Shown here piece after piece: positions 10,950 to 63,532 of a stretch of 64,000 nucleotides of DNA. The DNA is from Octopus vulgaris (lineage: Eukaryota). Position 1 is the stretch's first letter. Each line of letters starts with the position of its first letter. A program made the translations under genes and the position numbers. The DNA is taken from assembly GCA_951406725.2 (NCBI GenBank), contig OX597832.1:19964001-20028000 (forward strand), written 5' to 3'. The notes under the pieces are model-generated. The model was not told the DNA's origin, searched no databases, and saw nothing but the letters and a program-made list of their open reading frames with translations.

Positions 10950-10999
10950 TTTGTCAAAATATTTTCGTCGCGAAAATCCGCGACCTGTTCACTGACAAA
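10950..10999 (-). ncRNA. minimal Type I hammerhead ribozyme, G3:C8 core variant
   Basis: Minus strand UUUGUCA-GUGAACA-G-GUCGCG-GAUUUU-CGCGAC-GAAA-AUAU-U-U-UGACAAA: perfect 7-bp helix I, perfect 6-bp helix II, GAAA box and palindromic helix III; positions 3 and 8 are swapped in a compensatory way. Confidence 0.72.
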
Positions 11000-12334
11000 A
11001 ATCCGTGCTGCATCTCTTTTCGTTCCAGCACACGATCTCAGATCAAATCACTTGCTATGCGAGTTCATCTCCGTAAAGTAGTCTTATTTAATTTTAGATA
11101 TCGAGAAAACGTTGACGAGTATACATCCGTTTCGTCACCAAAGCTGTACCCAATGAAAGTTTCCATGATTAGATTATGATGTGTGATCGGGTTCGTAGCG
11201 TGAACTGATTTAACCAATGTGGCTGTTCGTCTGTTATTTGTGTGTGTAGACGTGACCATATTTATTTTCTTTTTTTCTAAATAAACAACCAGTTATTTAA
11301 ATCTATATGTGTTTGTCACTTTTCTTATATATTATACGTGGATTAAATATTGATAGTACCACCATTGAAAAGTTCAGTGTATGTCGGCGCACCGAATGAA
11401 TTGCGATGACATGTCTGTGAGTATGTGTGTGTGTGTGTGTGTGTGTGTGTGTGTGTGTGTGTGTGTGTGCGTGTGCATGTGTAAACGTCTGCTCACTCAC
11501 ACTCATATAGAAATATATTTGAGTGCGTTTATATTCAAATATCTATATCTATATCTATATATCTATATATATATATATATATATATATATATATATATAT
11601 ATATATATATATATATATATATATATATATATATATATATATGTGTATATATATATATATATGTATGTATGTATGTATGAGTTTGTATATGAGTGAATGT
11701 ATACGCACAGAGAGATACACGTATACAAATTTCTCTTTTGCGTAATTCAAAATAAAGCAAACGCCAAAATGAAGATAAGTAGGTGTCTCCGACACTGTTT
11801 AATTTTCCACTTCACTTAACCACATTTAAACTTTAAAGTGTCTGCAGAATATTGATAGTATATACTGACCACCACAAACAGTTTAAGACATAATTTAGGC
11901 CTTCTTACAGTTTCTTTATTTTTTTACACATTCATTTTATTTTACACTATTTCTTTTCATTATTTGCTTTGTTATACAGCGGGGAAATGGTTAAAAAAGT
12001 TCATGCATAAACGTCTAGAGACGAAAAATAATATCCTACGAAAATGATTAATAAATATAAATGATGTCCTTTGACTTCAATATAAATATATTTATCACCA
12101 TGGGAACGAAACAAATTTTCAAAGAAATGTAATTTTATATTGTTCTTATAAAATATTTGTTCTCCTTTTATTTTATGGTTCTAACAGTCTAATTTCTTCA
12201 TATATTTGGTGTAATTTGTGCTTGCTGTGTTTTCAGAACTGATGGCAATTTTTTACGGTGTACAGTTTCCACTACTATAATTCGTTTCATACTTACCTAT
12301 ATATATATATATACGCATACGTATACAAAATTTG

Positions 12335-12583
12335 ACATTATGCCGTGCTTGAGATGTTCGATCAAACCAAGAAATATCGCAGTCGTAACAGATACTAGTG
12401 TCAAGCAAATGGCACCCTTCCCGGTGGCACGTAAAAAGCAGACATCAAACTCTCGGAGTGATTGGCGTTAAGAAGGGCATCCAGCCTTAGAAACCATGCC
12501 AAATCAGACTGGAGACTGATCCCTGGTCAAACCGTCGTGTCCATGCCAGCATGGACAACGTACGTTATATGATGATGATGATG
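12335..12583 (+). mobile_element. SINE 3' part ending in a (TGA)n tail
   Basis: Contains tggcacgtaaaaagc and ttggcgttaagaagggcatccagc motifs typical of metazoan SINE bodies and ends in atgatgatgatg. Single copy in this window. Confidence 0.55.
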
Positions 12584-12937
12584 ACTCACACACACACACA
12601 CACACACACACTCACACACACACACACACACACACACGCACATATATATATATGCGTGTTTGACAGAAATGCTGAAACTAATAAAGAGGAGTGGATCCAA
12701 AACAATGCCTTGTCTGACAGCACTAATGACTCCTGCCGAGCGTGATCGAACACCATCGATTACCAGATGTCGACTTAAGAAGCTCCCAATCCGCCTTTAT
12801 ATTTTCCTCGGTATCCAATGTTGAATAGTTTCTTACAATCACAAGCGCACACATACGCATGTTATATATACATATGTACATATATATATATATATATATA
12901 TATATATATATATATATATATATATATATATATATAT

Positions 12938-13290
12938 ATTGTATAAAATCCGTTTTGTATGTCTGTCTGTGTGTCTTATAGGATCTCGGGCATCCTCCAT
13001 CCGATTGCGCTCAAATTTGATATGTAGACACCGACGGTATCAGGGCGTGTATAAGTCTTGAAAAAATTACAAAAATCGATACCAGGTAAGAATGCCATCG
13101 AAAAAGAATTCTTTAGAATAGAAAAAAGTCTATCTTTATTTCTTCTGTTGCTGATGTCTCAAATTTAGGTTGAATGAGTGTTTCTCAAAGGAGAGGCCTA
13201 TGGGACGGTCGGATAGGTTGTTTTGACAAAATTTGGTTTAAATGTTTGACAACTCAGCACCGTCCATTGGACGGGGGCCATTTTTCTCAA
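12938..13290 (+). mobile_element. possible non-autonomous Helitron-like element within (TA)n
   Basis: Starts …tataaaa…gtctgtctgtgtgtc, contains ccgattgcgctcaaatttg and a 3' GC hairpin ccgtcc-att-ggacgg (about 13259-13274); (TA)n on both sides. Terminal CTAG not cleanly preserved. Confidence 0.45.
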
Positions 13291-15893
13291 ATATATATAT
13301 ATATATATATATATATATATATATATATATACTAGAAGAACGAGTGGGACATAGAGGAACTAAGAGACGGAGATAATCATTTAAAAAGACAGATAGACCT
13401 ACAATGTGTGAAACACAGAAATATATTACGAAGATTCATTCTTTCTTAGAGTTTCAATCAATGTGTATGTATCCCTATGTGGACGCTCGTGTGCATTTTT
13501 ATACAGATGGGTATGTATGTATGTATGTATCTATGAGACAGTCTATACGCTCGTATGAATATTTGTTAGTGAAGAGACTGCTGAAGTGTGTATCTCGTAC
13601 ACATACGGCTAACATAATTGTCTTCTTTTATTTCCAGTTGTGGATCTTTCGAAGCAAATCAATTTTATAACATTTCAATACATTGTAATAAACGGAAGAA
13701 ACGGAAATAAAACTAGAAATCCGTTGAGGTGGAAATATTTCAGCAAGGAAATATTAATTCCATTAAACACTCAACACTATCTAGATTATGCATTGATACA
13801 TCTGTGCGTATATACATACATGTATATATATATATGTATATATATATATATACACGTATATAGGTATATATATAAACATGTATATACATATATATATACA
13901 TATACGTACACACAGACACATATATATATACATATATAAATATATATATATGTAAATATATACATATATATACATATATATATATATATGTGTGTATATA
14001 TATGTATATATAAGTATATATATATATATATATATATATATATATATATATACATATATATATATATACGAACAAGAACTTACGTATAATTAACGTACGT
14101 AAGTATAATTCGTAATGTGAAATTCGAATAACAAGATGTAAGGTGCCAGCTGCAATGTATACATACACAAACATACATACATGAATATACATATATATAC
14201 ACACTAGTATAAACTCTTCTTTATATATAAACACACACGCACATATATATATATATATATATATATATATATATATATATATTTATATATATATATATAT
14301 ATATATATATATATATATATATATATATATATATATATGTGTGTGTGTGTGTGTGTGTGTGTGTGTGTGTATGTATGTATACACGTTAAATATGTCATAT
14401 ATGCTAATTAAATACAACCGTATTGTCAGAAATACAAACGCAAAGTATGTTTTAGAGTGAAATATATGTGTTTCGATATAAACGTAAAGCGCGCGCATTA
14501 CTGTGTACATATAATTATTGAGCTATACCAGTATACATCTACTTTTAACGTAATAATAAATTATACTTAGTTTTACTTGTAATCATATTCATTCATTGTA
14601 TTTATAATTAGGTATGTATTTGATATAGTTTTATATGATAGATGTATATGTGTATGCTGACTTCTCTGTTAACGTCTCTCCCTCTTTACCCTACCATCTC
14701 TCTATAAATCGATTTCTCTATATGCATATATATGTATATATATATATATATATATATATGTGTGTGTTTGTGTCTGTGTGTATACCTATATATACATACA
14801 TACATATATATATATATATATACATATATAAACATATATATACATATATATATATATATATATATATATATATATATACATGCATATATTGCATATATGT
14901 GTGTATGCTTGTGTGTTTGTGTGTGTATATATATATATACATATATATATAAACATATATATACATATATATATATAAATATATATATATACATGCATAT
15001 ATATATATGCATATATGTGTGCATGCTTGTGTGTTTGTGTGTGTGTATATATATATATATATATATATAGAGAGAGAGAGAGAGAGAGAAACAGGATTAC
15101 ATAAATGTGTGTTTATAGAGGTATCATCATATATATGTATATGCATATATATATCCATATATATATATATATATATATATATATATATATATATATACAT
15201 ATATATATACAGGTATATGCGTAGATGTATGGGTGTATATATATATGTACGTATCTATGTTCCTCAATTTATATTCATATATATATATATATACCTGTAT
15301 AAGGTTATGTATTATTAAATATATAATTACGTCCATGTATCTCATAGATATATGCATATATTTTGCGTATGTATGTATGTATGTATGTATGCATGTGCAT
15401 CTTTGGGTGTGTAGGTGTGTGGCTGTGAGTATATTTGTGTATAGTTGTGTGTCTGCATTTTACACGCGCATTGTATTATTTGCATCTGTCTAACGTGTTG
15501 CCAACTTCCGCGATAACAATAGAAAGAAATAGAGCAATACTTCGCCCAATTGTGAAACGCTAACGAAATTTTAGCAAGGTTTTTGGCGGGAAGACACCAT
15601 GAAACTAGATTATGATGGCAAATCTATACACTCAGAAATATTCATCAACAACAACAAAAACGCTGAGAAGATACTATGTAAATTGTAATGTAGTTTTTAT
15701 TTTCGGGTCTTATTTTCATTGGAATTATATCAAGTCTTTCTATAAATCAATTTTTGCATCTCCTCTTCCCGTCTATGGAACACTTTAGATTAGATTAGCG
15801 TTGAAAAGATAGATATTTCAAATTTAGATGTCTTCCGATTCTTCACAATAATTCTCTTAAGGCCAGACGAAATGCAACACATACAGGAGGTTG

Positions 15894-62749: not shown

Positions 62750-62920
62750 AATCTTTTTATTCTCTCTGTTTATTTCCTCATATTCCTTTCTGTTGAAGAG
62801 AGTAAGCTGAAAACGTAAAAGACTTCCCCTCTTTTCCGAGCGACAATCTAATACACCTTAATTGTTGTTCATACACTTACCTACGTCTTTTTACGAAATT
62901 TCTGTAAATTTCAACTATGT
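62750..62920 (+). mobile_element. Penelope-like terminal-repeat fragment with degenerate hammerhead
   Basis: cttt-CTGTTGA-A-gagagtaagctg-AAAA-cg-TA-aaag; 3' end runs into (TA)n at about 62921. Confidence 0.6.
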
Positions 62921-63379
62921 TATATATATATATATATATATATATATATATATATATATATATATATAGCATGTATATATAGCATGTATATATACATGTA
63001 GATGTAGGTACGTACATATATGTTTGTATGTATGCATATATTTTATTTATTACACTATTGTATGACTGAGCGCCTTCGCGTCGATTCAATTCGATTCGTT
63101 TGGTTTCATTTCTTCTTCTCTAAGCTGGTTTATTATATATATATATATATATATATATATATATATATATATATATATATATATAATAATAATAATAAAT
63201 ATTAGGGAATAAATCCAAATTTACAAGGAAAAATCAGATTTAAGATTGAATCCAATTTTATAATAAAATATTATATTATATCAAATTAGAGACAAAACCA
63301 CTATTATGCAAATCAAACAAAGAAAGACTTAAGCCAATACATAAAATAATTTATATAAATTAAAATTTAACATATGAAT

Positions 63380-63431
63380 AACCACTACGATCGTTTCGTG
63401 TCAGCACATCTTAGACATTCTTCAGGTGGTT
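63380..63431 (-). ncRNA. minimal Type I hammerhead ribozyme, inverted identical copy
   Basis: Exact reverse complement of 63481-63532 in the left palindrome arm. Confidence 0.82.
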
Positions 63432-63480
63432 TCAAAACCTTCTTAGCGAGTTTTAAATTATGAACTCGCTAAGGTTTTGA

Positions 63481-63532
63481 AACCACCTGAAGAATGTCTA
63501 AGATGTGCTGACACGAAACGATCGTAGTGGTT
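63481..63532 (+). ncRNA. minimal Type I hammerhead ribozyme (canonical C3:G8 core)
   Basis: AACCAC-CUGAAGA-A-UGUC-uaagaugugcu-GACA-C-GAAA-CGAUCG-UA-GUGGUU: 6-bp helix I, CUGANGA and GAAA boxes, palindromic helix III, GUA site with a predicted cut after 63526. A·C apposition at the base of helix II. Confidence 0.82.

Follow-up and report, generated by a model that had tools for sequence, protein, structure and literature searches.

A 64,000-nt stretch of the Octopus vulgaris genome (GenBank assembly GCA_951406725.2, contig OX597832.1, positions 19,964,001 to 20,028,000 of the forward strand; hereafter, the window) contains minimal type I hammerhead ribozyme (HHR) motifs of three families, each with a different base pair between core positions 3 and 8: G3:C8, U3:A8 and the canonical C3:G8. 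We call these families G, U and C. The G and U motifs are leader (pseudo-long-terminal-repeat, pLTR) motifs of endonuclease-positive (EN+) Penelope-like elements (PLEs), the open reading frame (ORF) of which combines a reverse transcriptase (RT) with a GIY-YIG domain. Overall, we are fairly confident that G and U are homologous hammerhead motifs in the leaders of sister PLEs, that C marks a third repeat, likely mobilised by Penelope, that the 3:8 pair has likely been selected for a foldable catalytic core, and that the predicted cutting is slow or conditional and acts on tandem or read-through RNA. It is tempting to go further and suppose that G3:C8 is a natural active ribozyme in three successive PLE families and forms, with its U3:A8 and C3:G8 sisters, a natural double-mutant cycle, the core being selected despite an uncleaved template; to this we give about even chances.

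Hammerhead Motifs in the Window

The three motifs lie at the following positions.

10950..10999, minus strand: G-family minimal type I hammerhead, G3:C8 (window descriptor match and family copies); helix I 10999-10993/10956-10950 (7 bp), core GUGAACA 10992-10986, extra G 10985, helix II 10984-10967, GAAA 10966-10963, palindrome 10963-10958, U17 10957
42343..42381, minus strand: U-family minimal type I hammerhead, U3:A8 (descriptor match and family copies); core UUGAAAA 42377-42371, extra G 42370, helix II 42369-42355, GAAA 42354-42351, palindrome 42351-42348, U17 42347
63481..63532, plus strand: C-family minimal type I hammerhead, canonical C3:G8 (descriptor match; Rfam RF00163); core CUGAAGA 63487-63493, GAAA 63515-63518, 8-nt palindrome, A17 63526

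Both the cores and the common topology agree with the preliminary description of this DNA: helix I, core, one extra purine, helix II, GAAA, palindrome, UH and helix I' follow one another in all three motifs. U4 G5 A6, A9, G12 A13 A14, A15.1-U16.1 and H17 are likewise present in all three families. In the C motif, the extra A stands opposite an unpaired C (A10.1/C11.1), giving a 1x1 mismatch followed by a 4-bp helix II. Most U-family copies have a helix I of 3 bp, and the 4 bp seen in the window copy are specific to that copy.

A descriptor in which positions 3, 7 and 8 were left free, any base being allowed, matched the window five times, each time with a Watson-Crick pair at 3:8: 63487 (+), 63425 (-), 42377 (-), 10992 (-) and 44313 (-), the last being a weak, GU-rich match lost under a stricter descriptor. 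The match at 63425 (-) is a second, inverted C3:G8 copy, absent from the preliminary description. One hundred local dinucleotide shuffles of the window gave a mean of 0.09 matches with any pair and 0.03 with a Watson-Crick pair (maximum 1), so the motifs are commoner than in shuffled sequence. Weak matches with GU-rich helices, at 44313 (-) and 23219 (-), are probably due to chance.

The claim that CUGANGA-based screens miss the non-canonical cores holds, and it extends to Rfam: separate searches of the G motif and of the U motif returned no hammerhead for either. The C motif scored 22.8 bits with RF00163, under the gathering score of 34. A scan of the whole window gave no hammerhead among the 150 of 417 matches listed, which were mostly microsatellite miRNA matches.

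G and U Motifs Belong to Leaders of Penelope-Like Elements

The sequences surrounding the G and U motifs in the window are resolved as follows (TSD, target-site duplication; UTR, untranslated region).

10862..10872, minus strand: TSD (11 bp) of the G-family insertion, 3' side; identical 11-mer on both flanks
10873..11017, minus strand: G-family PLE leader copy with hammerhead, 5' UTR and ORF start
10873..10900, minus strand: first codons of the G-family RT/GIY-YIG ORF, ATG at 10900; full ORF in locus L267
11018..11076, plus strand: inverted G-family tail piece (about +130 to +184 from the core), head-to-head with the leader
11077..11087, minus strand: TSD of the G-family insertion, 5' side, pairing with 10862..10872
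42191..42273, minus strand: tail of the U-family copy, corresponding to the first 27 PLE ORF codons (match to the N-terminus of a sister ORF)
42386..42432, plus strand: inverted arm of the U-family copy with an internal deletion, predicted to pair with and mask the core

Full-length G elements were reached through an ORF fragment (at L005) that has a G copy on either side. In these, the motif stands about 90 nt upstream of the ATG of an RT + GIY-YIG ORF and is repeated about 1 kb behind it; among loci fetched at 10 kb, a G leader was found about 1 kb past the ORF end in 7 of 10, and L267 and L268 have leaders on both sides of the ORF. The ORF is a 1,025-aa open frame with readable RT motifs and a Pfam GIY-YIG match above the cutoff (PF01541, E 1.8e-5), while a PDB sequence search with it gave no match. 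The G copy of the window shares 95% identity with both leaders of L267.

For the U family, a PLE-type ORF was found adjoining a U copy and then used as a genome-wide query. Of the 21 loci of this ORF family, 13 carry a same-strand U leader behind the ORF, with the motif intact in 10, and several carry an inverted leader copy upstream. The U ORF matched Pfam RVT_1 below the cutoff (E 0.055). Direct pLTRs from partial tandems, inverted 5' copies and a tail, which constitute PLE anatomy, are present at L267 and L268 as well as at L104/L111 and L126.

Full-length G copies possess a 3'-splice-site-like sequence 20 nt upstream of the core; an exon 1 matching it was not found in these copies, and no leader intron was seen in the U family. 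Among the short G copies (L003-L030), 30 of 47 that could be classed begin with a common 4-5 nt (an AGAG or TGAG end), also 20 nt upstream of the core. At L091/L004, L144 and L150, three G copies lie within 4 kb inside a decayed RT remnant ending directly after the thumb region, and two further loci of this sort also hold G copies. We take this remnant to be Naiad-like. The remnant near L004 was ruled out as a parent of the G family, the G copies there being insertions with TSDs.

Sister Motifs and Swaps of the 3:8 Pair

The same protein search revealed a sister family, a young PLE with open frames of 1,310-1,312 aa (L211-L215, e.g., L214:2763-6698 +) and a long N/S-rich insertion in its ORF. 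Its leader has the core CUGAUGC (C3:G8, C9) and a non-palindromic helix III; an older sister copy, L276, reads CUGAUGA, i.e., it has A9. The G, U and sister proteins are 52-61% identical to each other and fall into three groups, each with 100/100 support, in an unrooted tree of eight rows from this genome only, with no reference PLEs. Their motifs all have the extra G, and the strands of helix II fit GUYRC/GYRAC, differing from family to family in a compensatory way; the motifs stand 90-135 nt upstream of homologous ORF starts. The tail of the window U copy matches the N-terminus of the sister ORF with 79% identity over 24 aa (E 3.6e-6).

These sequence comparisons show homology among all three motifs, those of the G and U families and the C3:G8 motif of the sister family. 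Thus, the view of the preliminary description that the motifs are unrelated in sequence has to be abandoned for G and U, and the covariation argument becomes stronger, since both descend from one ancestral motif. Three 3:8 states in one homologous motif imply at least two double changes within one element group, and we infer that the pair was swapped at least twice among sister families. Such compensatory swaps argue for selection on core geometry.

Two older, decayed families of the G type, whose copies are 70-77% alike, differ in loop II, N7 or helix III. They retained G:C in 12 of 15 copies (5 of 20 rows were dropped, the core being uncovered) and in 10 of 19 (6 of 25 dropped). Together with the main G family, this makes G3:C8 the majority state in three families.

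Abundance and Retention of the 3:8 Pair in the Genome

A first look at the 2.8 Gb genome gave 538 (G), 533 (U) and 858 (C) candidates, of which 40 were scored per motif. An exact pattern consisting of core, extra G, helix II and GAAA then matched 6,834 times for G3:C8 and 3,887 times for U3:A8, with one control match each; these thousands of matches bear out the earlier proposal that the motifs are minimal type I hammerheads of multicopy retroelement families. The A3:U8 version of the pattern matched 11 times (control 0). It was rejected as a fourth family state: most of the 10 loci fetched have loops typical of G or U, and L330 belongs to a family in which G3:C8 prevails. The A3:U8 copies are best read as products of decay.

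Complementarity at 3:8 is kept within the families: in fetched copies covering the core, the pair is retained in 65/72 (G:C), 60/60 (U:A) and 51/52 (C:G). In a census of 77 stretches of 10 kb taken at round coordinates, the descriptor matched 15 times (8 C:G, 3 U:A, 2 G:C, 1 A:G and 1 A:A). The Watson-Crick share, 13/15 against 27% expected from base composition, comes from matches that stem from few families and are hence non-independent. The first 40 stretches, shuffled 10 times, gave no matches. A non-canonical pair occurs in 5 of the 13 Watson-Crick census matches, a small sample. Three more minimal U3:A8 hammerheads (L083/L095, L176 and L077) have C-G-rich palindromes and helices unrelated to the others, so U3:A8 is present in several families of this genome.

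Variants common to several copies occur in none of the 32 core columns of G and U together, against 51 of 290 downstream columns (Fisher p 0.004), such shared variants being either master-copy differences or CpG decay, with no CpG correction applied. Loop II has them in 5/8 (G) and 2/5 (U) columns. In the C family, positions 3-9 vary in 0/7 columns and the GAAA/helix III part in 2/12. The copies entering these counts were chosen by similarity to a motif-containing query, which biases the counts towards conservation. In contigs from four public runs, which bear four organism labels, the core is free of common variants; these occur in loop II and downstream, along with one helix I change, from A-U to G-U.

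One might argue that G3:C8 is a neutral accident: in a single master copy, a hammerhead that was already dead would have acquired complementary bases by drift, and amplification would have followed. Copy number by itself shows amplification, not selection, and Naiad PLEs have been reported to proliferate without canonical HHRs (PMC8557442). Such an accident would have to be reconciled with G3:C8 as the majority state of three families that are 70-77% alike within themselves and divergent in loop II, N7 and helix III, with Watson-Crick pairs in both sister families too, and with the 13/15 census share against 27% by composition; we consider it very unlikely. Selection for a foldable catalytic core explains these observations better in our opinion.

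The C Family: A Spliced Leader Repeat

In the window, the C family is represented by two copies.

63186..63463, minus strand: C-family inverted leader copy, spliced, with a second hammerhead (core 63425); stops before an (AT)n run
63465..63645, plus strand: C-family leader copy, spliced, short exon 1 joined 15 nt upstream of the core; ends at the +157 cluster (see below)

The two form a near-perfect palindrome, matching at 142 of 146 positions. At four other C loci (L261, L262, L265 and L266), we read a GT-AG intron of 1.1-1.3 kb, which ends 15 nt upstream of the core and holds internal duplications and microsatellites. A pattern combining the exon end with the splice donor gave 6 matches (control 0). 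Of 39 C copies that were classed, 26 are spliced, 10 unspliced and 3 of another kind. Both window copies being spliced, they must have passed through RNA.

The anatomy of the C family is PLE-like: a leader intron in some copies, an HHR just past the 3' splice site, inverted pairs and two 3' ends. On these grounds, the C repeat is likely Penelope-mobilised, and it is possibly a non-autonomous element. A tblastn search of six C loci found no match to an RT/GIY-YIG ORF, only leader-type copies being present. Hence, the link to PLEs drawn in the preliminary description stands for G and U, with their ORF-linked leaders, and lacks such an ORF for C.

Since most copies are 150-300 nt long and have no ORF, and C may be non-autonomous, having no ORF at its six loci, one could regard the short copies as independent SINE- or retrozyme-like elements (SINE, short interspersed element), unrelated to each other, with convergent hammerheads. 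This is contradicted for G and U, whose copies hold the first PLE ORF codons and match full-length leaders, and head-to-tail tandem monomers are absent from all three window sites. We therefore give this idea almost no credence.

Copy Ends and Predicted Cutting

Measured from position 3, each family has two preferred 3' ends, at about +125/+180, +126/+190 and +157/+260. A fixed 5' start just upstream of the motif characterises the G and C families; the window G leader (10873..11017), for example, starts about 24 nt upstream of the core and stops at the first 3' end cluster (about +121). The short leader pieces in the window have a 5' end of this fixed kind or one set by an inversion. Nearly all copies contain the entire motif, and almost none begin at the predicted cut, from which it follows that the copied RNA template was uncleaved.

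We propose that reverse transcription by the PLE protein would begin at two internal positions past the ribozyme, as demonstrated in vitro for PAc, the Poseidon element of Anolis carolinensis (Frangieh et al. 2024, PMC11167929). Internal initiation on the 5' leader of the RNA would yield short leader copies, and priming on both nicked strands would yield head-to-head pairs. An uncleaved template favours a slow or conditional ribozyme, which might need a dimer formed via the palindrome or the assistance of a protein. Any cutting would then concern a different set of RNAs, of which tandem read-through transcripts are the most likely.

In the predicted monomer fold, helices I and II form, and the double hammerhead is the best predicted dimer in C only (-27.8 kcal/mol). 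When the surrounding window sequence is included in the folding, the G copy retains its fold. Hairpins are then predicted to sequester the U and C copies, and both are probably inactive at these sites.

Several observations weigh against our interpretation, in addition to the missing C-family ORF, the common descent of census matches and the limits of the conservation counts. Segments starting at the predicted cut show no excess (G 2/82, U 0/75 and C 0/63, the G segments being counted after removal of microsatellite-only matches and of copies running into the intron side), and the two G segments are explicable by helix I microhomology. The double-hammerhead dimer is not the best one in G (-28.8 vs. 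-32.7 kcal/mol for the family type; 4-10 above the best overall) or in U (-8.6 vs. -16.4 kcal/mol). Both motifs have the predicted cleavage triplet UUU. The C at position 9 in the young, intact sister departs from the consensus, so changes of the core can be tolerated. The order of the swaps is not given by an unrooted tree without an outgroup. Finally, HHR mutants had no effect on PAc insertion in vitro (PMC11167929).

These points bring forward another explanation, namely that the hammerhead fold is kept for a non-cleaving job in the leader (binding of the PLE protein, placement of the RT start or translation of the ORF 90-135 nt downstream), the 3:8 pair then serving this fold and cutting in vivo being negligible. 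In its favour, uncleaved RNA was the source of nearly all copies, PAc insertion is not impaired by mutants with a dead HHR, RNA-seq ends at the PAc cut site were not found (PMC11167929), the in vitro activity of minimal HHRs is low (PMC4209133), and A9C is found in the young sister family; viral 5'-UTR hammerheads promote translation, though cleavage is needed there (PMC13725137). On the other hand, the conserved positions are precisely the catalytic ones (G5, A6, A9, G12-A14, U16.1 and H17), whereas loop II and N7 vary, and the PAc hammerhead does cleave in the presence of the protein (PMC11167929). We consider a purely non-cleaving role unlikely and prefer slow or conditional cutting by a selected core.

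Other Repeats in the Window

A repeat search across the window was dominated by microsatellites. A SINE-like repeat adjoining (AT)n runs is abundant, with many window copies, e.g., at 25600-25900, 27107-27469 and 54128-54574. ORF fragments at 44964-45290 (-), 47923-48318 (-) and 35692-36111 (-) resemble decayed non-LTR retrotransposon ORFs.

Comparison with Known Systems

Lünse, Weinberg and Breaker (2017) reportedly dealt, to go by the title, with small PLE-associated hammerheads that cleave as dimers. A natural G3:C8 pair was not found in the literature searched, a set that included neither the latter paper nor file S2 of Craig et al. 2021. The hammerheads of PLEs show low activity in vitro and are not needed for insertion, and it has been suggested in print that they are no more than parasites of these elements.

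Cervera and de la Peña 2014 (PMC4209133) described the minimal hammerheads of PLEs and their anatomy, reported that the activity of dimers is low, and found U3-A8 as a natural pair. The octopus motifs share with those metazoan ones the type I topology, the location in pLTRs, one nucleotide between 9 and 10.1, the palindromic 15.2-16.2 and the occurrence mostly as solo or opposite-strand copies, and the G and U families also share G10.1-C11.1. They differ in the extra nucleotide, which is G in the octopus G and U families and H in the published consensus. That paper reports U3-A8 families in Schistosoma mansoni with about 1,300 matches, one with a UUGAAAA core. The cores in its 56-row alignment and in the text portions covered begin with CUGA or UUGA, with no G3:C8 core among them; the alignment has no cephalopod row, and the portions covered do not map 3:8 states onto sister elements. 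The helix II strands of the octopus U family resemble those of the Drosophila Penelope hammerheads in that alignment, by shared descent or chance. Natural 3-8 covariation was treated by Perreault et al. 2011 (PMC3088659), where, in the part covered, U3-A8 is the only state named as natural.

With PAc, the octopus elements share an HHR at the junction of pLTR and ORF and, by our reading of the copies, two internal RT start sites early in the ORF, priming of both strands and an uncleaved template (PMC11167929). The 3' ends lie 55-105 nt apart in the octopus families, in contrast to the 30-40-nt tail of PAc. In the same work, an engineered C3G/G8C double mutant of PAc partly restored cleavage, and G3:C8 is known as an engineered rescue from PMC8495972 and PMC3884650 as well; the pair made in the laboratory in PAc is the natural state of three octopus families. 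Given this partial rescue by an engineered swap, the chemistry itself is unsurprising.

Metazoan non-LTR retrozymes (bioRxiv 10.64898/2026.07.22.740005) also have a type I HHR related to PLE pLTRs and short non-coding copies. Unlike these retrozymes, which are head-to-tail tandem units with an HHR in each monomer, the octopus copies are leader fragments containing the ORF start, and those in the window are solo or head-to-head.

Minimal PLE HHRs and the U3:A8 pair were therefore known before (PMC4209133), and only G3:C8 in natural PLE hammerheads is possibly new. CUGANGA descriptors and Rfam undercount such motifs, and elements reported to be without HHRs merit a rescan; if G3:C8 is indeed active in nature, thousands of copies have been overlooked by standard screens. 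What our analysis adds to the known systems is the covariation of the 3:8 pair through three states of one homologous motif, in sister elements for which full-length carriers were found, and these sister motifs offer a natural set of scaffolds for cleavage studies.

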